This document shows, in pieces, positions 18,213 to 37,122 of a DNA stretch of 43,667 nt. The position numbers and the translations under genes were made by a program. Position 1 is the stretch's first letter. Each line of letters begins with the position of its first letter. The DNA comes from Candidatus Kaiserbacteria bacterium (GTDB lineage Bacteria; Patescibacteriota; Minisyncoccia; Phycocordibacterales; UBA2100). The notes beneath the pieces are model-generated. The model searched no databases, was not told the DNA's origin, and saw only the letters and a program-made list of their open reading frames with translations. The stretch lies in contig JAFAPB010000075.1 in assembly GCA_019247335.1 (NCBI GenBank), forward strand, positions 1 to 43,667, written 5' to 3'.

Positions 18213-19562
18213 ATGATGACTAATCGGGAACTATGGCAAAATGCGCTCGTACAGATCGAACTCGGCACCTCTCAAGCCTCGTTCCGGACCTGGTTCAAGA
18301 ATACTGATGTCTCCAATCGCGACCAGGGCACCGTCCAGGTCGCCGTTCCGTCGAAGATCGTGAAGGAGTGGCTCCTCGAAAAGCATCACAAGCTGATCCT
18401 GAAAGCGCTCCGCTCGCTCGATCCTTCTATCCGAACGGTCGAATACGTCGTGCACCGCACGCAGCCGCGCGATGAGCGCCGTCCGCGCGTGCGCGAGAAT
18501 CAGGAGAACGCTTCGCTCGATCTCCAGGCGCTCTATATAGACAAGCGCGACAATCTGAATCCCCGATACACCTTCGAGACGTTCGTCGTCGGACCTTTCA
18601 ACGAGCTCGCGCATGCCGCCGCGAAGGCGATCATCGAGCGTCCCGGGCTTGTCTACAACCCGCTTTTCATCTACGGACAGACCGGGCACGGCAAGACGCA
18701 CTTGATCCAAGCGATCGGCAACTATTTCAAGAAATCACACGCCAATAAGAAGGTGCTCTACGTGACGAGCGAGCGCTTCGCGATCGATTACATCAATGCG
18801 GTGCGCGGAGGGCACGCGAACACGTTCAAGGATCAGTACCGACAGTACGACGTGCTCATCATGGACGACGTCCAGTTCATCGCGAACACGGAAAAGACCC
18901 AGGAAGAGCTCTTTCATCTCTTCAACGCCCTCCGAGACAACAACAAGCAGATCATTTTCTCGTCCGACAAGCACCCGATGCTCCTCCCCGGCTTTGAAGA
19001 CCGCCTCAAGGGGCGCTTCTCGGCCGGCATGATCGCGGAAATTCCCGAGCCGGATGTCGAATCGCGCCTCGCCATCATCCGCGCGAAGCTCGAGAGCCAT
19101 GGATTTTCGATCCCCGACGATATCACGCTCTACATCGCGGAGAATGTGCGCGGCAACATCCGTGAGCTCGAGGGAGTGTTGAACATGATCGTCTGCAAAT
19201 CGCAGTTGAAGGGAAAGACGATCTCGCTCGCCGACGTGCGTGCGCTCATCAAGCACAACGTAAAGCCCAACAAGGGTGTTTCGATCGACGAGGTCGTGCG
19301 CCGCATCGCGCAGTACTACGAGGTGCCGGAGAAGTCCATTTACGAAAAGACCCGCAAGAAGGAGGTCGTGAAGCCGCGGCAGATCATCATGTATGTCTTG
19401 CGTGAAGAATTCTCCGTCTCATATCCGTCGATCGGCGAAAAGCTCGGCGGACGCGATCATACGACGGTCATCCACTCGTGCGAGAAGATCAAAGAAGAGA
19501 TCAAGGGGAACAATTCGCTCGAGCAGGAACTCGATCATATTCGCGCACTCATACACGCATAA
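18213..19562 (+). CDS. dnaA: Chromosomal replication initiator DnaA
   Basis: 449 aa with Walker A GQTGHGKTHL, DDVQF and a C-terminal DNA-binding helix-turn-helix region. Confidence 0.95.
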   Translation: MMTNRELWQNALVQIELGTSQASFRTWFKNTDVSNRDQGTVQVAVPSKIVKEWLLEKHHKLILKALRSLDPSIRTVEYVVHRTQPRDERRPRVRENQENASLDLQALYIDKRDNLNPRYTFETFVVGPFNELAHAAAKAIIERPGLVYNPLFIYGQTGHGKTHLIQAIGNYFKKSHANKKVLYVTSERFAIDYINAVRGGHANTFKDQYRQYDVLIMDDVQFIANTEKTQEELFHLFNALRDNNKQIIFSSDKHPMLLPGFEDRLKGRFSAGMIAEIPEPDVESRLAIIRAKLESHGFSIPDDITLYIAENVRGNIRELEGVLNMIVCKSQLKGKTISLADVRALIKHNVKPNKGVSIDEVVRRIAQYYEVPEKSIYEKTRKKEVVKPRQIIMYVLREEFSVSYPSIGEKLGGRDHTTVIHSCEKIKEEIKGNNSLEQELDHIRALIHA

Positions 19563-19777
19563 GTATGTGTATAAGCAGTGCACAATCGGTAGAGATCGTG
19601 CGCGCGAAAACGGGGACAACTCCTCTTCATCATTTCTCCACAATTCAGACACCGGCTAACCGTCAGCTTTTCAACAGTGAGCGACATGGTAAAAAGTCAG
19701 TATATAAGCCGCAAAATCCATCTATACACGGTATCCACACCACTAGTAGTAGTAATAAGTTCTTTAATTAAAAATCT
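19563..19777. promoter_or_regulatory. Candidate oriC (dnaA-dnaN spacer)
   Basis: Three 8/9 DnaA boxes: TGTGTATAA (19566-19574, reverse orientation), TTCTCCACA (19634-19642) and GTATCCACA (19731-19739). An AT-rich tract at 19743-19777 could be the unwinding element. Confidence 0.6.
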
Positions 19778-20875
19778 ATGAAGATCGAGACAACAAAGGA
19801 AAATCTGCTTCGCCCTGTTTTGATCGCGGAGCGGGTCACCGGGAAAAAAGAATCCCTCCCGGTGCTTTCGTGTGTTGTTCTCGAAGCGGATGATGGGCTT
19901 CTTGTGCGAGCGACCAATCTTGAGGCAGGTATCGAAATAGGGATCGCCTGCGATGTCGCGCAAAAAGGTACCGTCGCGGTCCCCGCGTCGATACTCTCGC
20001 AAACACTTCGTTCGATCTCCGCCGACAAGATCAAGCTCACGTCCGAAGACGGGAATCTCCTCATCGAATCAAAGGGAACAAAGACGTTGATCAAATCGGT
20101 CCCACACGAAGAGTTTCCGCGACTCACCGCATCAAGTGACGGTAACGGTATTAAAATCGCGCGTGAGCGAATTTTACGCGCCATACAGGCAGTCTCATAC
20201 GCGGCGTCACCCTCGATGATCCGCCCCGATCTCGGCAGCATCTTTCTTTCCGCAAAAAACGACACGCTCATTTCCGTCGCGACCGATTCATTTCGCCTCG
20301 CCGAAAAAACATTGACCGGTACGGGATCGAAGATTCAGGGCGAGCTTCTGGTGCCCCTCAAGCACGCGCTCGAACTCGCTCACATCCTTGAGCATGTCGA
20401 TGACGAAATGGTGGATCTGCGCATCGACGACTCGCAGCTGATAGCCCGAGTCGGCGCCGCACGCTTTATCTCACGCGTCGTCGATGCTCAATTTCCGAAT
20501 TACAAGGAAATCATTCCGAAATCAGCGACGACCGAGGCGATCGTCCTCAAGAGCGATCTCGCCGAAATGCTTAGGAAGGCACGCGTTTTTTCCGGGAACG
20601 ACATGCATGTCGGACTCCATGTGTATCCGAAGAAGAAGGTATGCACCGCAACCGCGCGCTCGAATGACGTGGGCGAAATGTCCGACTCGATCGATGCGGC
20701 TCTCTCGGGCGAGGATATCGACATTAATTTCCACATCGGCTATCTCGCCGACTGCCTGTCGTCCATCGAATCTGATTCGGTCGTCCTGTCTTTCTCCGGC
20801 GCAGGAAAACCACTTGTCATCCGCGGCGTTGCGGACAAATCATTCATGTACCTCGTGATGCCACTCAATCGCTAG
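19778..20875 (+). CDS. dnaN: DNA polymerase III beta sliding clamp
   Basis: 365 aa, follows dnaA, typical three-domain length. Confidence 0.95.
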   Translation: MKIETTKENLLRPVLIAERVTGKKESLPVLSCVVLEADDGLLVRATNLEAGIEIGIACDVAQKGTVAVPASILSQTLRSISADKIKLTSEDGNLLIESKGTKTLIKSVPHEEFPRLTASSDGNGIKIARERILRAIQAVSYAASPSMIRPDLGSIFLSAKNDTLISVATDSFRLAEKTLTGTGSKIQGELLVPLKHALELAHILEHVDDEMVDLRIDDSQLIARVGAARFISRVVDAQFPNYKEIIPKSATTEAIVLKSDLAEMLRKARVFSGNDMHVGLHVYPKKKVCTATARSNDVGEMSDSIDAALSGEDIDINFHIGYLADCLSSIESDSVVLSFSGAGKPLVIRGVADKSFMYLVMPLNR

Positions 20876-27561: not shown

Positions 27562-27981
27562 ATGAAGATCCGCTACGTTGCCGCCGGGTTTGCCGTTCTT
27601 TTTTTCCTGGTGTGGATCACGACGCACGTGCCCGCGTTCAACGACGCGCGCGGGTACAACTTCGGCCTCTTCAAGATCGATCCCATCGACGACGTGGTGC
27701 ACCTCTTGACCGCGCTCATCGGATTTCTCGCCGCATGGCACGGCGCACGCTCTTCGCGCATCTTTCTCGTCGTCTTCGGCGCACTCTACGCGCTCGACGC
27801 CCTGACTGGCATGGTCTCGCAGCTCGGACTGCTCGATCTCTCGCTCATCCACAATACGCTCCTCGGTGAAACCATCCTCAATCCAAATTTCGGCATCGTG
27901 AATTGGCTCGTGAATATGCCGCATATCGTGATCTCCGCCGCGATGATCTACTCCGGCGTTTGGGGTTGGCGCCGCGGGTGA
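27562..27981 (+). CDS. Small polytopic membrane protein (DUF4383-like by recollection)
   Basis: 139 aa with four hydrophobic helices. Confidence 0.55.
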   Translation: MKIRYVAAGFAVLFFLVWITTHVPAFNDARGYNFGLFKIDPIDDVVHLLTALIGFLAAWHGARSSRIFLVVFGALYALDALTGMVSQLGLLDLSLIHNTLLGETILNPNFGIVNWLVNMPHIVISAAMIYSGVWGWRRG

Positions 27982-27982
27982 C

Positions 27983-29125
27983 ATGTATCAAGAGGGGATC
28001 ATAATACGCATCGTACGAAAGATCGCTCATGCGCTCGGCAGCCTCGCGCTCCTTGCCGTTTTTGTGAGCGCCATCATCTTCGTCATCGTCTTTACCTATA
28101 AGGATGAGGCCTGTGGCGCGGGGACATTTCCGCCGTATGTCGCGACGCCGACACCCCGCCTCCAGCTTGCTGAAGCGCAGGACTATATTCGCAGCGAAGA
28201 GACGACCTTCATCACCTTCCCCGAGTGGTACATCGTCTACAGCGCGCGCGAATACGCCGCCTACGTGAGCGACGGTAACCGGCCGAGCCATTTCCCGTAT
28301 TTCCGATCGATCGCGCAGTTCTGGTGCGGCTACGGCGCGGTGCATTCGTATACGAAAGTCGCGTATCCCAAGGACTTTTACGGTAATCTCGAAATTTTTA
28401 CGATCGGTGCGAGCTTTTCGGTACAGAATCTCCTGCAGGGCGTATACGAAAATACCATCGGTCGCGTGAGCGAATTCTTTGCATTCGACGAAACGACGCC
28501 GGAGGATGTCTTTGCCCAAAAAACAGCCGTTGATTACGCGGCATTTCTCGATGTAACGCCGTGGTATCGCTATCCCTTCTTCGGCAAAATCGACGAGCTC
28601 TGGAAAACCGTGCCCGCTCGCGGACCGCACATGGTCCGCAAATGGGAACGGCGCTTCTACCTCACCGCGCTCTATAGCGTTGAGGGCCTCTGGAGCAAAG
28701 TGATCGCGAAGGCGACGGGCGATATCTACGCGCCCGCGACGGTCCAGGAAAAAATGCTAGTCGCGGCGCCGCTCCCGCCCACGCTCGCGAGCGATACGCG
28801 CATTCGTATCGACAAAGATCTCGGCGACGACACTGCGATTATCATCGTGCCGCGCTATCAGGAATTCACTGACATCGTCGAGAAATTCGCAGCCGCACAT
28901 GCGCCGATCCTCGATATCGCCGGTACGCGTCAGATACTGACGACCGCATTTTCTCCCGCGGCGATGCATTATGATCTCCCGGGGACGCTGCTGTTCACGG
29001 AGCAGGTCCTCACGGATCCTGCACGAGAGCGGCTTGGCATCGTCGTACCGGTCAGCGACCTTGAGACATGGGTGCGCGCGGCGTCTTCGAGCGGTCTCAC
29101 CATCGAACATATCTATGATTTCTAA
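27983..29125 (+). CDS. Membrane-anchored hypothetical protein
   Basis: 380 aa with an N-terminal TM (LGSLALLAVFVSAIIFVIVF) and protein-like composition. Confidence 0.65.
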   Translation: MYQEGIIIRIVRKIAHALGSLALLAVFVSAIIFVIVFTYKDEACGAGTFPPYVATPTPRLQLAEAQDYIRSEETTFITFPEWYIVYSAREYAAYVSDGNRPSHFPYFRSIAQFWCGYGAVHSYTKVAYPKDFYGNLEIFTIGASFSVQNLLQGVYENTIGRVSEFFAFDETTPEDVFAQKTAVDYAAFLDVTPWYRYPFFGKIDELWKTVPARGPHMVRKWERRFYLTALYSVEGLWSKVIAKATGDIYAPATVQEKMLVAAPLPPTLASDTRIRIDKDLGDDTAIIIVPRYQEFTDIVEKFAAAHAPILDIAGTRQILTTAFSPAAMHYDLPGTLLFTEQVLTDPARERLGIVVPVSDLETWVRAASSSGLTIEHIYDF

Positions 29126-30143
29126 AATCCTCCGCTGGTTTTTGTACGCGCTCCTCGCGACCCTTGTCGCACTCGCACTCCTTGGAGAGTTCTTTTATCT
29201 CGCCGCAGAGCGGCGGGAAATCGCCGACAATCATACTGCTGCGCCCGCGTACGGCCGCTTCGTGAAAGCGGGCGACGTGAATCTCTACATTCAGGAATGG
29301 GGACCGTCGACCGGCACGCCGATCGTGCTTGTGCACGCGGCCGGTGGCTGGAGCGGTGTTTGGCAGACAACGGGCGAGGCGCTCGCCGCGCATGGCTATC
29401 ACGTGATCGCGCCGGACATGCCGCCGCTCGGATTTTCGGATCGGCCGGACTCGCCGCGCTATTCGCGTGCCGATCAAGCGGCGCGGCTCGTCGCGCTTCT
29501 CGATGCGCTCAAGATACCGCGCGCCGTTTTTGTGGGGCATTCATTCGGCGCTCGCGCGGTCGCGGAGGTCGCGATTAATAATCCCGATCGCGTCTCCGGC
29601 ATTGTCTTCGTCGACGCGGCGCTCGGCCTCCAGAGTACGAGCTCGCCGCTTCTCGCCGATATCCTCGCGCCGAAAATAATACGGCGCGCGATCACGGCGG
29701 CGACGCTCTCGAATCCCGCATTTACTAAAACGCTCCTCGATAAATTTGTGGCAAATCCCGACACCGCAACTCCGGAGTGGGTGAGTATCTACCAGGCGGC
29801 ACTCAATGTGAAAGGAACAACGAACGCAACCGCGGATTGGCTGCCAACGCTCGTCGCCGAGCAGGGCCAGTTCAAGAGCAAGGATCCGGCAAATTATCGC
29901 GCGATCAAAGCGCCGACTCTGATCCTGTGGGGCGAGGCGGATAGCGTGACGCCGATTTCGCAAGGCAGATTCCTCGAATCGCTTATCAAAGGCGCGCAGT
30001 TCCAGAGTATTCCGGCCGTCGGCCACCTGCCACCGATCGAAGTCACGAAAGAATTCGACGACGCGCTCCTGAAGTTCCTCGATACGCACAAAACGCTTCT
30101 CGCCAAAGGCGCCGCCTGCGCGCCCGGCGTCATGTGCAGCTGA
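29115..30143 (+). CDS. Membrane-anchored alpha/beta-fold hydrolase
   Basis: Internal ATG gives MISKILRWFLYALLATLVALALL. Contains HAAGGW, the nucleophile elbow GHSFGA and a C-terminal VGHLPP. Confidence 0.8.
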   Translation: MISKILRWFLYALLATLVALALLGEFFYLAAERREIADNHTAAPAYGRFVKAGDVNLYIQEWGPSTGTPIVLVHAAGGWSGVWQTTGEALAAHGYHVIAPDMPPLGFSDRPDSPRYSRADQAARLVALLDALKIPRAVFVGHSFGARAVAEVAINNPDRVSGIVFVDAALGLQSTSSPLLADILAPKIIRRAITAATLSNPAFTKTLLDKFVANPDTATPEWVSIYQAALNVKGTTNATADWLPTLVAEQGQFKSKDPANYRAIKAPTLILWGEADSVTPISQGRFLESLIKGAQFQSIPAVGHLPPIEVTKEFDDALLKFLDTHKTLLAKGAACAPGVMCS

Positions 30144-31736
30144 TCACGCGCCGTACGTCTCGTACCACGTGTTCGTAAAAAGATTCTGCGGGTCGATCGC
30201 TTTTTTGTACGAGAAAAATGCGTCGATATTCGGATATGCCGCCTCCAATTGCGCCTTCGAATAGTAGAGCTGATACGGCAGGAAAAATTTGCCGCCCTCC
30301 TTGTGCGCCGCATCGATCAGCTCCTCCGTTACTTTTTTCATCTTCGCATTGCCCGCATTGTCGGTTTTTTGATTCAAATACAAGACGACCGAGAACGCGT
30401 CCTGCGGCGCGTAGTTGAGCGCGATATTTTCTTTGTGCACGACGCGGATCGAGACGTTCAGTACGTTCGCATTATTTTTTTGGAAGATCGTCTTCATGTC
30501 AGCGATAAATGGGAGGATGTTCGCGCGCGGGATGAAATATTCGTGCAGGATGTCGGTATCATCGACCAGATCATTCTTCAGATACGGCACGCTGTCGTGC
30601 ATGGGCTCGTTGCGCGAGACGAGGCAGCCCTCGCCGCTTTTCTGCGCGTCGTTGCGCGAGATCTCACAGCTCTCTAGTTTCGGCTCGATATATTTTTCGC
30701 TCCACCACTTCAAGGTCGCGGGGATAGGGCCGAGCTTTGCGAGGTTGATGGTGAGGCGCCGCAGCGGGATCGAAGAAACTTCGTGCAACGGAGGCGATTT
30801 GAGGGGATCGAGATCGGTTTTTGTGTAGGTGTAGAGGATGGCCTCATCTAATAGAGAGCTCGGCGCGGTCGAGAGATGCGCATAGAAGAGCCCGATATCG
30901 GGTTTTTTCTCAATTTGCGCCCACGCGGCAGGGAAATCGTTCGTCTGGATCGTCTGGCGGCCTGATTGATAGATCACATTGTCGACCACGTCGATCTTGG
31001 CATCGAGAATGACGCCGAAAAGCCCGTACCCGCCGACGATGTGCCGGAAGAGCTCCGCATTTTCGCTGGGCGAGACGGTCGTGATCTCGCCCGAGGGGAG
31101 CATGACACGCATCGAGCGAATGGTGTCGGCGACCGAGCCGGCCTGGTGATCCATGCCATGCGCGTTGACCGAGATCGAGCCGCCGACGGTGAAGATGTCG
31201 GTCGATTGCATCGCCTTCACCGCAAAGCGCGGATGCAGATAATTCTGGATGTCGTGCCACGTCGCGCCGCTCTGCACGGTCAGGATTTTCGTATCGGCAT
31301 TCACGCTCATCGATTTGTAGTCGCGCATGTCGACGACGAGCGCATCTTTGGCGAATGCCTGGCCGCCCTGGCTGTGCCGCACGCCCGCGATCGATACATG
31401 CAGTCCGTGCGCCTTGGCGAACGAAAGCGCGCGCGAAATATCCGCCTCGCTCTTCACGCTCACCATTCCGTAGATCGCCGTACGATCGAGACAGCTTGAA
31501 TCGTTGATGGTGCCGCCGCGCTGCTCCCAATCGAGCGCGGGATCGAACGCCGTGTTTTTCATATCCGGCACCGCCTCGCCGGGGTTGAGCGGGGGACAGT
31601 CCTTCTCGCCGACGGGCCCGGCGGCATAGTAAATGACCTTCTTGATGAGGAATCCGATGATCAAAAGGAGGATCGCGAGCGTGATCACGAGCTTCCGCGA
31701 AAATCGGCGCGCCTTGCGGACCAGCTTTTGAGCCAT
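30144..31736 (-). CDS. Membrane-anchored FAD-binding (PCMH-type) oxidoreductase
   Basis: N-terminal TM, then an FAD_binding_4-like region (ISIAGVRHSQGGQ, GGSISVNAHG). The ATG at 31736 has TACAAT 6 nt upstream; an alternative GTG is at 31772. Confidence 0.8.
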   Translation of the reverse strand: MAQKLVRKARRFSRKLVITLAILLLIIGFLIKKVIYYAAGPVGEKDCPPLNPGEAVPDMKNTAFDPALDWEQRGGTINDSSCLDRTAIYGMVSVKSEADISRALSFAKAHGLHVSIAGVRHSQGGQAFAKDALVVDMRDYKSMSVNADTKILTVQSGATWHDIQNYLHPRFAVKAMQSTDIFTVGGSISVNAHGMDHQAGSVADTIRSMRVMLPSGEITTVSPSENAELFRHIVGGYGLFGVILDAKIDVVDNVIYQSGRQTIQTNDFPAAWAQIEKKPDIGLFYAHLSTAPSSLLDEAILYTYTKTDLDPLKSPPLHEVSSIPLRRLTINLAKLGPIPATLKWWSEKYIEPKLESCEISRNDAQKSGEGCLVSRNEPMHDSVPYLKNDLVDDTDILHEYFIPRANILPFIADMKTIFQKNNANVLNVSIRVVHKENIALNYAPQDAFSVVLYLNQKTDNAGNAKMKKVTEELIDAAHKEGGKFFLPYQLYYSKAQLEAAYPNIDAFFSYKKAIDPQNLFTNTWYETYGA

Positions 31737-31850
31737 GTATTTATTGTATCGCCTATCCACAGTTCTATACACGACTAATCCCCGCGATATCCACCGTTTT
31801 AGACGATTTTTGTAAAACGGCTGTCAAGTGAAGATGAGTACTATTTGAAG

Positions 31851-32083
31851 TCCGACCACTTTACCGTGCGTCGGCGGGATACGGGACGGGCGAAAGCCCC
31901 GACAGGATCCCAATTCCCTGAGTCTACGGAGCCATGCGCCCGGGACATTGCGGGAATCGTCGGTCGGAGCATTGGATTTGAATGCACCAGCGGCGGGAGG
32001 AGATGACATCAAGCACCGTTGCGCCTTCGAAGACTCATAACGATCGAAAGCAGAAGCCGCCTCTTGGGGCGGCTTCTGTCTTT
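31851..32083 (+). ncRNA. Structured-RNA candidate, family member 1 (unknown family)
   Basis: Closing helix TCCGACC (31851-57) / GGTCGGA (31962-68). Box CTTTACCGTGCGTCGG (31859-74). GAAA-tetraloop hairpin at 31888-99. Conserved 27-nt block at 31949-75. 11-bp hairpin at 32051-78. No credible ORF. Confidence 0.45.
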
Positions 32084-32092
32084 ACCGTGCGT
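32080..32092 (+). repeat. Orphan copy of the 13-nt RNA box CTTTACCGTGCGT
   Basis: Identical 13-mers at 31859-31871, 32080-32092 and 32251-32263. This copy sits directly after the first hairpin and marks the left edge of the AT-rich block. Confidence 0.7.
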
Positions 32093-32132
32093 TACTTCGC
32101 ATTGTATAGACGTATTTTTCGCAAAAGCGAGT

Positions 32133-32168
32133 TATGCACATATTTGTGCACAGCTCTATGCACATGAT
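32133..32168. promoter_or_regulatory. Three 12-nt-phased TGCACA sites (operator/iteron-like)
   Basis: TATGCACATATT | TGTGCACAGCTC | TATGCACATGAT. The centre unit contains the perfect palindrome TGTGCACA. Confidence 0.35.
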
Positions 32169-32243
32169 TTCCAAACGTTATCCCCGAAAAAATCGTTTTC
32201 GCGCAAAATGCGCGCGCAAATCGCACTTTTATACTCTTCCTAT

Positions 32244-32486
32244 CGATGCGCTTTACCGTGCGTCGGTCGGTCCAAGGGTCCCGCAGCAATGCGACTTCCT
32301 AAGGATCAGTTCCCAGGATCTAATGCAAGGCGAAAGCCTTGCGGACGGTGCGGGAATAGGCGGCGAGAGCATCGGGTTCGTGTGGGCGAAGCGGGGAGAT
32401 CATATCAAGACGACTCGCGCTCACGAAACGAAACATAATCGCCGTAAACACAAAAGCCTCCCTCGCGGAGGCTTTTGTGTTGTGGG
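32244..32486 (+). ncRNA. Structured-RNA candidate, family member 2 (unknown family)
   Basis: TATACT at 32230-35. Closing helix CGATGC (32244-49) / GCATCG (32369-74). The same box at 32251-66. GCAA-tetraloop hairpin at 32282-93. Second GAAA hairpin at 32275-92 of the next line block (GCAAGGC-GAAA-GCCTTGC). 27-nt block at 32349-75. 14-bp hairpin at 32448-80 followed by TTTTGTGTTGT. Confidence 0.45.
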
Positions 32487-32535
32487 CGCTTAACTCTTTG
32501 CATGTCGCCATAAAATATATGATGATATCGTAACT

Positions 32536-33564
32536 ATGGCTGTTAATAACCTAGCCATGCTCGAAGAATATAAGAGTTTGCAGCTTCTATATGCTGACTT
32601 CGCTGAACGCCTGAAATCAATAGCAAAAGATATTCTTGACCTGAACGAGATAAATATCGTGTCGATTGAAGCTCGTGCAAAATCCACAGACAGTCTAAAA
32701 AGCAAAATCGAAGCACGAAGTGAAACGTTACAAGAACTAGTTGATATTAAGGATCTCGCGGGCGTTAGAGTTATTGCGTTGACCCGAGCTGATGCCGAAA
32801 AGATTGAAGAACAGCTCAGTGCTTGCTTTGATGTTGAGGAGAGTACGGACGAGGGTGCGCATGAGCTCGACAAAATAGGCTACAGATCAAAGCACCTCGT
32901 AGTCTCGTTACCAAATGAACGGTGTGCGCTACCCGAGTATAAAAAATTTAAAGGACTTAAAGCTGAACTACAAATCAGAACGGTACTTGAGCATGCATGG
33001 GCACAAATCGGCCATGATCAGGTTTACAAGCAGAGCTCAGTATTGCCGGAAGAAATACGTCGCGATTTTAATCTACTCGCTGGTCTATTAGAAATAGCCG
33101 ATAAACAATTCAGCCGACTAACCGGTGAAATATCGCGACAAGAAAAAAATGTTGCTCAAAAAACACGGCAGGGCGACCTTAATATCCCGATCGACTCCAT
33201 ATCATTACGCGGTTTCCTAAGCGAAAAATTCAAGGGACTTTCAAATCTTGATCCCCGATTTGGCCCGCAAGATAACATGGCAGAGGAAATCATCTCGGAA
33301 CTCAAGGCCATGGGCATAAACACTCTCCAGGATTTGAATTCCGTAATCCCAGAGGACTACAAGGAGAAAGCGCAGGCGTTAAAAGAATATAATAATTTTT
33401 GTGGAATAACTCGAGATATCATGATCATTCACGACGCAAAAAAATATTTTGAAGGTCCGTGGAAAAATAAATGGGCCTGGGGTAGAGATGAGGGACACAT
33501 ACTGTCCTTCTATGGTATTGATCGCAATGAATTAGCTAAGAAATATCAGGATCTTGAGTCTTAA
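32536..33564 (+). CDS. Stand-alone RelA/SpoT-homologue nucleotide pyrophosphokinase (small alarmone synthetase-like; toxSAS/CapRel-like candidate)
   Basis: 342 aa. Ordered synthetase motifs ARAKSTDSLKSK, DLAGVRV, GYRSKH and ELQIRTVLEHAWAQIGHDQVYK. No HD hydrolase domain. ~150-aa C-terminal extension. Markedly lower GC than the flanks (38% in the first 60 nt, counted by hand). Confidence 0.85.
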   Translation: MAVNNLAMLEEYKSLQLLYADFAERLKSIAKDILDLNEINIVSIEARAKSTDSLKSKIEARSETLQELVDIKDLAGVRVIALTRADAEKIEEQLSACFDVEESTDEGAHELDKIGYRSKHLVVSLPNERCALPEYKKFKGLKAELQIRTVLEHAWAQIGHDQVYKQSSVLPEEIRRDFNLLAGLLEIADKQFSRLTGEISRQEKNVAQKTRQGDLNIPIDSISLRGFLSEKFKGLSNLDPRFGPQDNMAEEIISELKAMGINTLQDLNSVIPEDYKEKAQALKEYNNFCGITRDIMIIHDAKKYFEGPWKNKWAWGRDEGHILSFYGIDRNELAKKYQDLES

Positions 33565-33582
33565 AAATCTTGATCTTCAAGA

Positions 33583-33660
33583 CTAAAGAAGCTTAGGCTT
33601 ATCTTCAGGTACTGAAATGCCGATGTGTTCGTAGTCTTTTTGGTGACAATACGGCCGCAT
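33583..33660 (-). pseudogene. Frameshifted remnant of a ruvB 3' end
   Basis: 33619-33656 aligns to ruvB 34667-34705 with 34 of 39 columns identical and one 1-nt indel. The minus-strand reading retains ..YEHIG...LL-stop, as in the real RuvB C-terminus (..KKGYEHIGAEPPKGQTQLL). Confidence 0.6.
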
Positions 33661-33669
33661 AAATAGTGC

Positions 33670-33695
33670 GCCCGGCGAGGGTGGCCTCGCCGGGC
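33670..33695 (-). terminator. Hairpin downstream of the HExxH gene
   Basis: GCCCGGCGAGG-GTGG-CCTCGCCGGGC, an 11-bp stem. The minus-strand tail GCACTATTTAT is only moderately T-rich. Confidence 0.45.
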
Positions 33696-33701
33696 TGGTT
33701 G

Positions 33702-34586
33702 CTACGCGACCGCTTCGATCGCGGCTGCGACTTCGGCCTCAATGTCGCAGGTGAGCAGTGCGGCTGCGAGCATCGAGAGTTCATCGCGGCCAGCGGCGCC
33801 GATGGATTGCATGATCGACTCGATCTTCGCGGCGCGGAAGCGTTCGACCCACGTGCGCTCCATCAGGATGTCCGTCGCGTCGAAGTACGCGCCATACAGA
33901 TCCTTCCAGACCTGCGCGTGGTCGTCTTCGATGTCGCCGAGCCGCTTCACGAGCGCACGCGCGAGCCATACGGCTTTGCGATACAGCGCCCACTCGGCGT
34001 CGGCCTCGATCTGCTTGAAGTACTCGGCGATCAGATCAGGATCGGCGAACGTCGGATCGAAGTTCAGATACTCGCGCATCACCTCGCGGGCGAAGCACTC
34101 GGTGAAACCTTCGCTCAAGAAGAAGTTCGATCCGGCGATCCAGGGTTCTTCCGGCTGGAACCATTTCGGGAAGTCCATGCCGATGTACTTGTAGAAGCCG
34201 CAGATCTCCATGGTGAACTTCACTTCGATGCCGTGCACCCGCGTGGTGCGTGGCTCAAAGGTCCGCGTCTTTGCGATCTTGTGCACCCGCTCGTGGATCA
34301 CGAGATTGAGCACGATGAGATCATGCGGCGCGCCCTGTTCGACGCGTTCGTCGATGCCGGGAGTCAGCAGCCGGTACCCGTCTGGTTGGGCATAGCCCGA
34401 GATCAGCCGCCCCGTGCGTTTGTCGATCACTCGCTGTGTATCGAGATAGGCGCGCTCGCTCGGAAAACGTCCGAAGTCGAGCTCGTAGCGCCGCTCGACG
34501 ACGTGGTACGCACGGAGGAGCTTGTCCTCGTCGATGCGCTCAAGAACTGCGCGCAGCCTGTCGAGACTACTTAGAGGTCCAGTCAT
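33702..34586 (-). CDS. Hypothetical protein with an HExxH (HERVH) motif
   Basis: 294 aa from the ATG at 34586 (GGGGG 6 nt upstream); an alternative TTG is at 34622. Balanced amino-acid composition, unlike the antisense 33666-34574 ORF. Motif LVIHERVHKI. Confidence 0.6.
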   Translation of the reverse strand: MTGPLSSLDRLRAVLERIDEDKLLRAYHVVERRYELDFGRFPSERAYLDTQRVIDKRTGRLISGYAQPDGYRLLTPGIDERVEQGAPHDLIVLNLVIHERVHKIAKTRTFEPRTTRVHGIEVKFTMEICGFYKYIGMDFPKWFQPEEPWIAGSNFFLSEGFTECFAREVMREYLNFDPTFADPDLIAEYFKQIEADAEWALYRKAVWLARALVKRLGDIEDDHAQVWKDLYGAYFDATDILMERTWVERFRAAKIESIMQSIGAAGRDELSMLAAALLTCDIEAEVAAAIEAVA

Positions 34587-34630
34587 TGATACCCCCACAT
34601 TGCTGCGCGGGATTATGCGCAATTATCGAT

Positions 34631-35635
34631 TTAAAGCAATTGCGTCTGACCTTTCGGCGGCTCGGCGCCGATGTGCTCGTAGCCCTTTTTGGTGACGATT
34701 CGGCCCCGCGGCGTGCGTTCGAGGAGGCCCACCTGCATAAGGTACGGCTCGTGGACTTCTTCGATAGTCGCTTCTTCTTCGGAGAGCGATGCGGCGATCG
34801 TCTTTAAACCGACGGGGCCGCCATTAAATTTCTCGACGAGGATCGTGAGAATGTCGCGGTCGATCTGATTGAGCCCGATCTCATCGATCTCGAGAAGCGC
34901 GAGCGCTTTTTTCACGGTCTTGATGTCGAGCTTCTCGCTGTTGACCTCCGCAAAGTCGCGCGCGCGTTTCAATAGATAATTCGCGGTGCGCGGCGTCGCG
35001 CGCGAGCGGCGCGAAATTTCCATGAGCGAGTCCTTGTCAATATCGATGCCGAGAATTTTTGCGGAGCGGCGGAGTATCTCCGCGATCTCTTCAACGCTGT
35101 AGTACTGCAATCGGAACGTGCCGCCCGAAAATCGCGAGCGAAGCGGCGCAGAGAGGAGCGAGATACGCGTCGTCGCGGCGATGAGCGTGAAGGGCGGGAG
35201 TTCGAGCTGCACGGTGCGCGCGCTCGGCCCTTTGCCGATCACGATATCAAGTACGCCTGCTTCCATCGCGGGGTAGAGGACCTCTTCGATCGTGCGATTC
35301 AAGCGATGGATCTCGTCGATAAAGAGCACGTCACCCGGCGTGAGGTTGGTGAGGATGGAGGCGAGGTCGCCCACGCGCTCGACGGCTGGCCCTGAGGTGG
35401 TGCGGAGATTGGCGCCAAGCTCTTTGGCGATGAGGTGCGAGAGCGTCGTTTTGCCCAATCCTGGAGGGCCGTAGAGCAGCACGTGCTCGGGCTGGTGATT
35501 CCTGCCTTTGGCTGCGGTGAGGAGAATACGAAGGTTCTCTTTAATAGAAGGTTGGCCGATGTAGTCGGCCCACTCGGTCGGGCGAAGGGCTTGATCGAGG
35601 CTGCGGGGGCTTTTTTCTATCGAGGGTTCGGTCAT
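34631..35635 (-). CDS. ruvB: Holliday junction branch-migration ATPase RuvB
   Basis: 334 aa from the internal ATG (MTEPSIEKSPRSLDQALRPTEWADYIGQ). Walker A GPPGLGKTTL, Walker B IDEIHRL. Confidence 0.95.
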   Translation of the reverse strand: MTEPSIEKSPRSLDQALRPTEWADYIGQPSIKENLRILLTAAKGRNHQPEHVLLYGPPGLGKTTLSHLIAKELGANLRTTSGPAVERVGDLASILTNLTPGDVLFIDEIHRLNRTIEEVLYPAMEAGVLDIVIGKGPSARTVQLELPPFTLIAATTRISLLSAPLRSRFSGGTFRLQYYSVEEIAEILRRSAKILGIDIDKDSLMEISRRSRATPRTANYLLKRARDFAEVNSEKLDIKTVKKALALLEIDEIGLNQIDRDILTILVEKFNGGPVGLKTIAASLSEEEATIEEVHEPYLMQVGLLERTPRGRIVTKKGYEHIGAEPPKGQTQLL

Positions 35636-35678
35636 AAAAACGGGCTTTTTGGCACGCCGGGGCGGGGCAAAAAGGCGC

Positions 35679-35706
35679 TTGACAATTAGGTATAATATGC
35701 TATACT
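35679..35706 (+). promoter_or_regulatory. Near-consensus sigma70-type promoter facing away from ruvB
   Basis: TTGACA (35679-84), 16 nt, TATACT (35701-06). The -10 context TATACTCT..CCTA is also present upstream of RNA member 2. Confidence 0.55.
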
Positions 35707-35711
35707 CTCTA

Positions 35712-35938
35712 CCTAGAAAGCGGGTAATGCCGCTTTTTCTATTTGAGAGACGCACAGCTTCGGGCGATCGCGACTTTTCCGAGGACGGCGGCGGGATGCC
35801 GCCTCGTGCAGCATTGCTGCCCCTATCCTTAGGATCTAGTAGCAACTTTTCCAACAAAGGATCGCCCGAAAGTGTGCGCCTCCAGCTAATTCGAAACATA
35901 ACACCCGATTGCAGGCACGCAATCGGGTTTTGTGGTTT
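35712..35938 (+). ncRNA. Structured-RNA candidate, family member 3 (unknown family)
   Basis: 11-bp closing helix TTCGGGCGATC (35759-69) / GATCGCCCGAA (35860-70). Box variant CTTTTCCGAGGACGGCGGCGGGAT. Hairpin GCAGC-ATT-GCTGC (35808-20). AGGATC at 35831-36. CATAA. Terminator CCCGATTGC/GCAATCGGG (35904-27) followed by TTTTGTGGTTT. Confidence 0.5.
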
Positions 35939-35949
35939 AAAAATTCGTC

Positions 35950-35987
35950 AATAAAAGAAAAGCGGGCGCCGGCAGAGCCGTCGCCCG
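35950..35987 (-). terminator. Intrinsic terminator of the 35994-36272 gene
   Basis: CGGGCG (35963-68) / CGCCCG (35982-87) with an inner CGG/CCG extension, followed on the minus strand by TTTTCTTTTATT. Confidence 0.6.
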
Positions 35988-35993
35988 TCTTTG

Positions 35994-36272
35994 TCACCGA
36001 GGCCTCCGCTCTCGGTGATCTTGCAGGAATGCCGCCACGATGTATGCGGCGACGCCGAGAAGAACGCCGAAGCCGAGCGCCATGCCGATCTCGGCGATGA
36101 GTTTCCGCGCGACTATCGGCGTGATGTCGGTGACATCACAGCAGACGAGCAAGGTCGACCCGCTCGTGAGCAACATCTCGACCTTCGCCACCGATCGCCA
36201 GAGCGAGAAGTTCTTGGCGACTGTGCTCGTGAGCATCGCGGTGACGAGCGCAAGCGCTATGAGCGTGTCCAT
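35994..36272 (-). CDS. Small membrane protein, unknown function
   Basis: 92 aa with 2-3 hydrophobic helices. A strong SD, GAGGAGG (36280-86), lies 7 nt upstream of the ATG. Confidence 0.6.
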   Translation of the reverse strand: MDTLIALALVTAMLTSTVAKNFSLWRSVAKVEMLLTSGSTLLVCCDVTDITPIVARKLIAEIGMALGFGVLLGVAAYIVAAFLQDHRERRPR

Positions 36273-36328
36273 GGCACTTCCTCCTCACGAGGCCGCGTAT
36301 GTTCCCACCAGCGATCGCGTAGTGCCCC

Positions 36329-36661
36329 CTAGAGGAAGATCGAATCGCTCGGTGCGCGCGCGAATCCGGAGGCCACGGCTTCCTCGAACGTGATGCCGAG
36401 CCGCCGCATCGCTTCGTGGAACGATATGCCGCGGCCTTCCTTGATCGCCGTCTCGACGGCATCGCGACTTTCGGTGTCGAGCGCGTATGCTGTTTCGAGC
36501 GTGGCGATAACGCACCATTTCGGGTTAGACACGCGGTATGGCATGCGATACAAGATCGGCTTCCAAAGCGGTCGCTTGATCGCCAAGTGCGCGTTGATGC
36601 CGTGAACGATCCGCTGTTCGGCCAGATCGTAGTCAGCCTTGGGAATCCATCTCTCGGTCAT
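36329..36661 (-). CDS. Hypothetical protein
   Basis: 110 aa with SD-like GGGGAGAA upstream and protein-like composition. Confidence 0.55.
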   Translation of the reverse strand: MTERWIPKADYDLAEQRIVHGINAHLAIKRPLWKPILYRMPYRVSNPKWCVIATLETAYALDTESRDAVETAIKEGRGISFHEAMRRLGITFEEAVASGFARAPSDSIFL

Positions 36662-36718
36662 TGAGTTCTCCCCACAGTGCTGCAGAGAGCCTCGCTGAAA
36701 GCGGGAAGATAGTCAAGC

Positions 36719-36751
36719 ATAAAAATTTCGGGCGCCGATCGCTCGGCGCCC
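36719..36751 (-). terminator. Intrinsic terminator of the 36787-37122 gene
   Basis: GGGCGCCGA-TCGC-TCGGCGCCC (36730-51), a 9-bp stem, followed on the minus strand by GAAATTTTTAT. Confidence 0.55.
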
Positions 36752-36786
36752 GCCTTCCTCTCCCTCGTTGTTCATTGGCGTGGAAA

Positions 36787-37122
36787 TCAGCGGTGCAGCG
36801 CCTGATAGCGGGCGACCACTTCGCGGGCGACTCGGGTGAGCGTTTTCCCGCTGACGTGGTCGTCCCAGTAGAAGCCGAACAGAACCCGCTGCTCGGGCTC
36901 AAGTTCGGCCGCCGCAGTCGACCAGTCCCTGCCGGAGACAAGGGCCAGCTTGCAGCACGTGTCGCTCTCGATGTTGAGAATCGTCACATCGACGTTCATC
37001 ACCGCTTCGTGACCGTAACGCATCACGCAGTAGAGCAGGCCCATCAAAAGCCGCATCCGGGCCGTCTCTTCTTCAGCCATTTGCCGATCCAATTCGGCTT
37101 CGCGCCGTTCGACGGTTGACAT
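36787..37122 (-). CDS. Hypothetical protein
   Basis: 111 aa with a strong SD, GAGGAGGG (37129-36), 6 nt upstream of the ATG. The opposite-strand ORF 36661-37119 is Arg-rich and looks like an antisense shadow. Confidence 0.6.
   Translation of the reverse strand: MSTVERREAELDRQMAEEETARMRLLMGLLYCVMRYGHEAVMNVDVTILNIESDTCCKLALVSGRDWSTAAAELEPEQRVLFGFYWDDHVSGKTLTRVAREVVARYQALHR

Follow-up and report, generated by a model that had tools for sequence, protein, structure and literature searches.

Among described bacterial RNAs, the closest comparisons for the element discussed here are 6S RNA (ssrS; RF00013 and lineage-specific families) and orphan RNAs such as the raiA motif, OLE and ROOL. 6S RNA is rod-shaped: a long stem closes the molecule, a terminal stem forms the other end, and between them lies an irregularity in the form of a large open bubble with a small hairpin on its 3' side; as an open-promoter mimic it binds the sigma-70-type holoenzyme and templates product RNAs. 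Diverged 6S RNAs escape the general model, and 6S-Flavo forms a separate Rfam family. The orphan RNAs are known by conservation and covariation, are restricted to particular lineages, and were of unknown function at discovery. We compare with these a locus of a Candidatus Kaiserbacteria bacterium (GenBank assembly GCA_019247335.1, contig JAFAPB010000075.1), which belongs to the Candidate Phyla Radiation (CPR, or Patescibacteria). The whole stretch of 43,667 nucleotides (nt) that was analysed is called the window, and the element in question occupies positions 35679-35938 on its plus strand, head to head with ruvB (34631-35635, minus strand; RuvB_N 4.5e-71, RuvB_C, AAA_lid_4). An earlier note, made from the sequence without database searches, read this element as the third member of an RNA family whose other two members lie in tandem at 31848-32082 and 32240-32486.

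We can say with high confidence that 35679-35938 is a real gene for a structured non-coding RNA of about 225 nt, and that it belongs to a ruvB-linked family kept by ultra-small, Paceibacteria-type CPR bacteria. This family is uncatalogued, class-wide, vertically inherited and locked to ruvB. The two closest relatives in the genome collection (L001 and L002) each have a diverged copy that matches that of the window in position, orientation and kind of promoter, and the closing helix of these copies differs in sequence while its pairing is retained. A covariance model built from the window and these two relatives (R1) found exactly one copy in each of 20/20 further Kaiserbacteria loci, reached through 12 RuvB proteins, with scores of 73-115 bits; all of these copies are upstream of ruvB, at a distance of 30-280 nt, and on the other strand. 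Since none of the 20 loci was used in building R1, their recovery is an independent check, and the search for homologues beside ruvB that the earlier note had proposed thus gave a strongly positive answer. The copy in the window (35742-35887) scores 138.5 bits with R1 and 132.6 bits with a broader model of the same RNA (R3), the training sets of both models including the window. More distant loci with RuvB proteins 68-72% identical (L003-L007) hold diverged copies that score 61-91 bits with R3; their closing helix reads AUCUCUAAGCAAU/AUUGCUUAGAGAU, and they retain the inner landmarks AGGAC, UAUCCU and a CUU..AAG hairpin. When R3 was run on 73 other ruvB loci (Firmicutes, Proteobacteria, Chloroflexi and other CPR), only two marginal, non-significant matches were obtained at E<=1. 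One of these, in L069 (14.8 bits), is in the right place and on the right strand, and inspection by eye shows a promoter, a closing helix and a terminator, which make it a further member; the other, in L013 (18 bits, E 0.13), is a 40-nt match on the ruvB strand. A similar-looking element was also seen by eye in L012. In sum, the arrangement upstream of ruvB and on the opposite strand is the same in L001-L007, L069 and L081-L100; the family occupies this position in 15/15 distinct aligned Kaiserbacteria-like loci and, in diverged form, in another six loci of Paceibacteria. The core is 128-147 nt long in most orthologues. The RuvB of the window is 82-91% identical to proteins of Candidatus Kaiserbacteria metagenome-assembled genomes, and the linkage to ruvB persists in the window, where three inserted small genes separate the RNA from pilB.

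The limits of the transcript are marked by signals found in a motif and terminator scan of both strands of 35400-36200 (800 nt). The promoter (35679-35706, plus strand) consists of a -35 hexamer TTGACA (35679-35684), a 16-nt spacer ending in TATGC, which forms an extended -10 element, and a -10 hexamer TATACT (35701-35706). It agrees with the consensus at 11/12 positions, has the TG extension, and is the sole sigma-70-like site on either strand of the scanned region, while shuffled sequences yielded a mean of 0.2 sites. Transcription would thus start near 35713. The pattern TTGAC(A/T)-N16-18-..ATGC-TAnAnT is kept in 15/15 aligned orthologous loci and is near consensus in each. At the other end, the terminator stem (35903-35928, plus strand) reads ACCCGATTGC/GCAATCGGGT and is followed by TTTGTGGTTT; with their A-rich and U-rich flanks, its arms are 19 nt long (35894-35912 and 35919-35937). 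This terminator was called on both strands. It belongs to a 3' module (35893-35938, plus strand) made up of an A-rich box GAAACAUAACA, the stem CCCGAUUGC/GCAAUCGGG and the tail UUUUGUGGUUU. The box base-pairs with the U-rich tail. Read on the opposite strand, it is itself a U tract and supplies a tail there as well, so that the terminator is bidirectional. Box, stem and tail are all kept in the orthologues, where the module is shared with the convergent pilB.

No plus-strand gene follows the terminator: the coding-like open reading frames (ORFs) on the 3' side of the RNA (35994-36272, 36329-36661 and 36787-37122) are all on the minus strand, with a G+C content at third codon positions of 0.77-0.82, whereas the ORF that runs across the RNA itself has a flat G+C content over the codon positions. 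On the other side, 44 nt separate the ruvB start codon from the -35 hexamer, and in the window 107 nt separate it from the RNA core. The earlier note was therefore right to describe a stand-alone RNA and not a leader, given its own promoter and terminator, its divergence from ruvB and the want of a plus-strand gene after it; the promoter, the U-run hairpin, the closing helix, the inner hairpins and the terminator that it listed were likewise all recovered at the positions it had given.

Four lines of evidence agree on the strand. The promoter and the terminator both point to the plus strand, the models R1 and R3 score 73-155 bits forward and at most 37 bits in reverse, and G-U cells in the paired columns outnumber A-C cells by 69 to 28. 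We therefore place the RNA on the plus strand. The notion that the region is only the ruvB promoter and 5' untranslated region, which the earlier note had kept in view as a possible refutation, is excluded by the same plus-strand signals, forward scores and G-U excess.

The predicted fold of the 234-nt transcript has a free energy of -101.5 kcal/mol, as compared with -69.7 +/- 3.9 for shuffled sequences (z = -8.1; 0/200 shuffles as good). Covariation was assessed in an alignment of 15 distinct Kaiserbacteria-type sequences (A5), with 500 shuffles and with controls in which the pairing partners were slid. Standard pairs occupy 91.7% of the cells, against 36-44% (about 41%) in the slid controls, and 34/51 pairs show changes on both sides, against 18.6 +/- 2.5 in the shuffles; 5/5 covariation measures lie above all 500 shuffles. 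A MAFFT alignment of 20 sequences gave the same helices P1-P3 with still more compensatory pairs.

In the resulting structure, a closing helix P1 of about 23 base pairs (bp), a long P2/P3 arm and a small hairpin P4 meet at a tight three-way junction; the core that they form is about 140 nt long. P1 joins 35746-35769 to 35860-35883 through arms of 23 nt. The 11-bp helix reported earlier (35759-35769 / 35860-35870) is the inner part of these arms (35747-35769 / 35860-35882), which are 87% complementary; in the 15-sequence alignment, 16 of the 21 counted pairs of P1 are compensatory and 89.5% of its cells are paired. P2 is formed by GCGAC (35770-35774) and GUAGC (35839-35843). It is P2 that closes the centre of the molecule and makes the junction tight, and three of its five pairs have changed on both sides, with 96% of the cells paired; one pair reads AU:8/GC:8 in the 20-sequence alignment. 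The 3' strand of P2 and the junction (35839-35845) lead into P4 through GCAAC (35842-35846), a sequence invariant in 15/15 loci. P4 (35846-35859), CUUUU-CCAA-CAAAG, is supported by covariation in the 15-sequence alignment (5 pairs, 2 compensatory, 96% paired) and is also seen in the diverged loci L003-L007. In the P3 arm (35778-35834), UCCGAGGA (35778-35785) pairs with UCCUUAGGA (35826-35834); together with its extension it has 16 pairs, 9 of them compensatory. The segments AGGAcG and AUCCU of this arm are near-invariant and, with the GCAAC before P4 and an AU at the end of P1, make up the few unpaired or invariant nucleotides of the RNA. The tip of P3, by contrast, is variable: in the window it holds two small hairpins (about 35787-35803 and 35808-35820), and it is deleted in 9/15 orthologues. 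A further observation comes from L097/L098 (2629-2853), where the tip bears an insertion of about 95 nt; this shows the apex of P3 to be dispensable for the function of the family.

Upstream of the core lies a 5' hairpin, P0 (35715-35738), of the form AGAAAGCGG-GUAAUG-CCGCUUUUU, followed by a U-rich linker (35739-35745). The earlier note had regarded this hairpin and its T-run as casting doubt on the 5' end. A hairpin at the same site occurs in about 12 of the 15 orthologues, with stems as different as GCGG/CCGC, GCCGAG/CUCGGC, GCGC/GCGC and UCCCGC/GCGGGA; because it recurs with different stems, P0 is part of the RNA and not an accident. P0 would serve as a stabilising hairpin at the 5' end, with attenuation as the alternative; we prefer the former because the U-run is weak in some loci (L085, L096).

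For the function of the RNA, the explanation that we put forward by analogy, tentatively and at a little short of even confidence, is that of a trans-acting protein binder; when the identification as an RNA gene and the trans-acting protein-binding mode are taken together, we lean moderately in their favour. A more novel reading, to which we give much the same tentative weight, is an undescribed housekeeping RNA class of Paceibacteria-type CPR, distinct from a diverged 6S, SRP (signal recognition particle), RNase P or Y RNA, whose closed junction would let it serve a protein complex as its RNA subunit or as a decoy. The RNA would be made constitutively and at a high level, would be stabilised by P0, P1 and the terminator hairpin, and would offer a scaffold or decoy in trans through the junction and the lower loop of P3. 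The likeliest partner would be the RNA polymerase holoenzyme, in a 6S-like sequestration that would require P2, a weak helix of 5 bp rich in G-U pairs, to open; RNA polymerase as the specific partner is nevertheless doubtful.

Several points weigh against this account. The function rests on analogy, with a partner that is a candidate only. The covariation of P2 implies a closed centre with small internal loops, unlike the open bubble of 6S RNA, and the 6S models of Rfam were silent at E<=10 for the window locus and for five relatives; both of these tell against RNA polymerase in particular. P0 with its five U residues could terminate most transcripts early, and the tight linkage to ruvB could point to a local role in cis instead. 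As to expression, none of the RNA sequencing runs searched holds the window sequence, and the runs that do hold it are DNA. The single transcript-like sequence comes from a peat metatranscriptome, in which a 152-nt contig is 97% identical to L006:3739-3890, that is, exactly to the P1-closed core, while the flanking genes of the L006 core have no match there. This contig is of low depth, is about as long as a read and carries no strand information, and so gives weak support for expression in the relative L006. Runs X4 and X5 have no coverage of the window, and a contig of run X5 spans the promoter of a relative together with upstream DNA, which makes it uninformative on transcription.

The alternative that survives best, though we consider it unlikely, is that the RNA is a true but highly diverged 6S RNA, an ssrS product that mimics the open promoter as described above. 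The likeness is considerable. The two RNAs are similar in size, each has a strong housekeeping-type promoter and a single gene copy, counted here per locus, and each is broadly and vertically conserved in its lineage, here across a whole class. A core of 130-170 nt, a long closing stem, a mid-molecule irregularity with a 3'-side hairpin and a tip that tolerates deletion and insertion all fit the 6S-type rod of about 150-200 nt, whose outline would be drawn by P1 (about 23 bp) and P2 plus P3 (about 21-25 bp), probably stacked. However, the position of the would-be bubble is closed by the covarying 5-bp P2, with internal loops of 3-5 nt left (1-5 nt if all remaining loops are counted), and the RNA bears a 5' hairpin and an intrinsic terminator of its own without matching any 6S covariance model. 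Because a covariation-supported closed junction replaces the open bubble, we do not file the ruvB-linked RNA as 6S.

The comparison with catalogued families was made with Rfam 15 (4227 families). No match to the whole window reached a gathering score, and at E<=10 the regions 35500-36100 and 31600-32600 and five relatives gave chance matches to terminator hairpins only. None of the 4227 families matches the ruvB-linked RNA. The literature searched contained nothing on a ruvB-linked RNA, and one result combining '6S RNA' and Patescibacteria was irrelevant. With the orphan RNAs raiA motif, OLE and ROOL it shares its mode of recognition through conservation and covariation, its restriction to a lineage and a function unknown at discovery; it differs from them in having no match in sequence or structure in the Rfam scans, in being smaller and simpler than OLE and ROOL, and in its strict linkage to ruvB, which is unusual by comparison.

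This linkage is the basis of a second alternative, which we rate as somewhat less likely again than a diverged 6S RNA. The RNA could be a locus-bound regulator of ruvB, such that the strong divergent promoter, or the placing of an RNA gene across transcription of the ruvB strand upstream, sets ruvB expression. Promoter occlusion, coupling through supercoiling or antisense pairing with read-through transcripts would be the means, and the fold would serve mainly for stability and termination. The head-to-head arrangement is seen in every locus, even where the linkage to pilB is broken, only 44 nt lie between the -35 hexamer and the ruvB start codon, the scan of 35400-36200 detected no sigma-70-like promoter proper to ruvB, and a conserved GC-rich hairpin (35645-35674) stands between the two starts. 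What is left unexplained is a junction fold of about 140 nt with 34 covarying pairs and invariant unpaired nucleotides, all on the strand opposite ruvB. Moreover, as no promoter could be detected for ruvB by itself, the gene may be transcribed from one that overlaps the RNA gene, and such an overlap alone would freeze the linkage without any functional tie; the head-to-head position may thus be trivial, or it may reflect interplay between promoters.

Two features of this interval were observed on the side. The hairpin at 35645-35674, between the ruvB start codon and the -35 hexamer of the RNA, has A/U-extended arms CTTTTTGGCACGCC/GGCGGGGCAAAAAG, and L081, L083, L084 and L088 have counterparts with other stems; the ruvB mRNA may carry it as a 5' stem-loop, or it may insulate the divergent units from each other. 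Two terminator-like hairpins also lie upstream of ruvB on the minus strand, at 35963-35987 with TTTTCTTTT and at 35928-35903.

Returning from a role in cis to one in trans, the RNA might instead be a base-pairing small RNA acting on mRNAs through a single-stranded seed, either in the U-rich linker that follows P0 or in the box that precedes the terminator. We hold this to be improbable. The layout of promoter, structured body and terminator hairpin with U tail is typical of such RNAs, and the box AAC(A/G)AUA(A/G)CACCC is conserved. Its conservation, though, is accounted for by its pairing with the U tail and by its role as the U tract of a bidirectional terminator, and sites complementary to it in the window number 3 against 3.4 expected, which is chance level; as a seed, the 3' box was rejected on these grounds. 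Furthermore, the most conserved nucleotides are inside the junction and P3 and not in a free seed.

The remaining alternative of any weight concerns the tandem RNAs, of which the ruvB-linked RNA could be a remote paralogue, both descending from a single ancestral gene and having diverged beyond the reach of the models; this is as improbable as a base-pairing role. Both kinds of RNA are promoter-to-terminator units of about 230 nt in the same lineage, on the same strand and on either side of ruvB, with promoters and terminators of a similar style. Within this genome they have several short strings in common (CGAU.GCG.CUUU.CCG, GGCGGGAU, GCAGCA(A/U)UGC, UCCU(A/U)AGGAUC.AGU, CGAAACAUAA and UUUUGUG tails), and a CC-N-AGGR / YCCU-NN-GG helix round a small hairpin occurs in the ruvB-linked RNA and in three tandem-type copies.

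Cross-searches were nonetheless negative in both directions. With its filters disabled, R2, a covariance model derived from 13 tandem-type copies, recovers the two tandem RNAs of the window at 87.6 and 71.6 bits, and at E<=10 it has no match at 35.7 kb. Conversely, R1 (filters off) and R3 matched 35742-35887 only, besides terminator hairpins at E of about 1. Profile hidden Markov models of either type (nhmmer) did not find the other at E<=100, and blastn between the two types gave nothing. All 13 tandem-type copies are located in the spacer between ruvB and yebC and share their strand with the ruvB-linked RNA. Their hallmark is the box UUUACCGUGCGUC, invariant in 13/13 copies, which forms the loop and the 3' strand of a 5' hairpin. 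Beyond this hairpin lies P2, which varies, and then two further helices, UUCCC/GGGAA and CGGC/GCCG. The type lacks a conserved closing helix, in contrast to the closing helix of at least 21 bp and the junction of the ruvB-linked RNA, whose distribution is also far wider.

The resemblance on which the earlier note had relied does not survive comparison with orthologues. The box variant CTTTTCCGAGGACGGCGGCGGGAT is indeed present at 35774-35797, as are the hairpin GCAGC-ATT-GCTGC (35808-35820), CCTTAGGATC, and GAAACATAA at 35893-35901, the last also at 32430-32438. Yet the look-alike CUUUUCCGAGGACG runs across a linker of variable sequence into the covarying 5' strand of P3, and almost all orthologues read differently here (CUUUGCCAAGG, CUUCCUCGAGG and UUCUAUCGAGG among others). 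This 'family box' is not homologous to the tandem box. GCAGCA(A/U)UGC, CCU(A/U)AGGAUC and GAAACAUAA are missing from orthologues of one or both RNA types. The other strings common to both RNAs are coincidences within this genome, and none of the small motifs can stand as a family feature. The proposal of a third member of the tandem family was rejected on the failed cross-searches, the variable box and the different architectures: the ruvB-linked RNA very probably lies outside that family, and the tandem RNAs are a second uncatalogued RNA type.

Two further candidates can be dismissed briefly: an SRP (4.5S) RNA, which would call for a conserved apical domain IV (a GNRA tetraloop flanked by conserved internal loops), is contradicted by an apex that is the least conserved part of the molecule, being deleted in 9/15 orthologues and enlarged by the insertion in L097, and by the lack of an SRP match in Rfam, while a cis-acting leader or riboswitch is contradicted by a terminator that is followed by convergent minus-strand genes, the next gene being the convergent pilB in relatives.

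Some further observations concern the tandem RNAs. A second copy of their box, (U)UACCGUGCGU, stands directly after the tandem-type terminator in the window (32080-32092) and in most loci (L001, L002, L081, L083, L085, L086, L088, L093, L096 and L099), followed about 10-17 nt on by ATTGTATA and about 30-40 nt beyond that by TTATCCCCA. This region could be a promoter (-35 TTTACC, -10 TGTATA) directed toward the 3' end of ruvB, a remnant of a tandem duplication, or an alternative pairing partner for the 5' strand of the tandem type. In the AT-rich spacer between the tandem RNAs (32132-32164) there are three DnaA-box-like words, TTATGCACA, TTGTGCACA and CTATGCACA, at a spacing of 12 nt. An origin of replication around the tandem RNAs was considered and rejected; the window as a whole holds 18 such words against 11.8 expected, a marginal excess that 5/100 shuffles reach. 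The dnaA-dnaN genes (18213-20875) are 12 kb from the tandem RNAs, and in L081 and L098 the segment between ruvB and yebC contains small ORFs with a Bac_DnaA_C domain.

As to the wider setting, the window also carries jag-yidC-rnpA, dnaA-dnaN, yebC and pilB, and holds no transfer RNA or transfer-messenger RNA. In relatives, pilB is followed after 300-450 nt by ruvB and then, beyond a variable segment, by yebC and ruvC. In most of them the end of pilB abuts the RNA terminator, unlike in the window, where the three minus-strand ORFs at 35994-37122 (92, 110 and 111 amino acids) form an insertion that separates the RNA from pilB; a Pfam search of two of them, 35994-36272 and 36329-36661, gave no matches. 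The segment between ruvB and yebC (L081-L099; window 27562-34622) is a hot spot of variable cargo. In relatives this cargo includes DoxX, YggT-like, SLFN/AlbA_2 ATPase, Usg and methyltransferase genes and large unknown ORFs, and in the window it includes a low-GC gene with a RelA/SpoT domain (32536-33564), an FAD-linked oxidase and others. Outside assembled genomes, many contigs of the soil DNA run X2, with a summed depth above 200, match only the 5' region of P3 (35760-35830) and the terminator (35900-35950) at 80-95% identity, which suggests that many related Kaiserbacteria-type copies exist in soil.

The CPR or Patescibacteria make up a large share of bacterial diversity, with genomes of about 1 Mb that have shed much regulatory machinery. 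A conserved RNA gene in such genomes is likely to do something central, because a near-consensus promoter and a fold held by dozens of compensatory changes have been retained. For annotation, the result is that two different RNA families flank ruvB, and not one family with three members. If the reading as an undescribed housekeeping class is true, ruvB in Kaiserbacteria would be bracketed by two unrelated, uncatalogued structured RNA genes, and the ruvB-linked RNA would, in one version, regulate RNA polymerase or the recombination machinery, binding in a manner unlike that of the open-bubble 6S RNA. Identification of its partner would extend the short list of broadly conserved bacterial RNAs and could show how CPR organisms control transcription or recombination.

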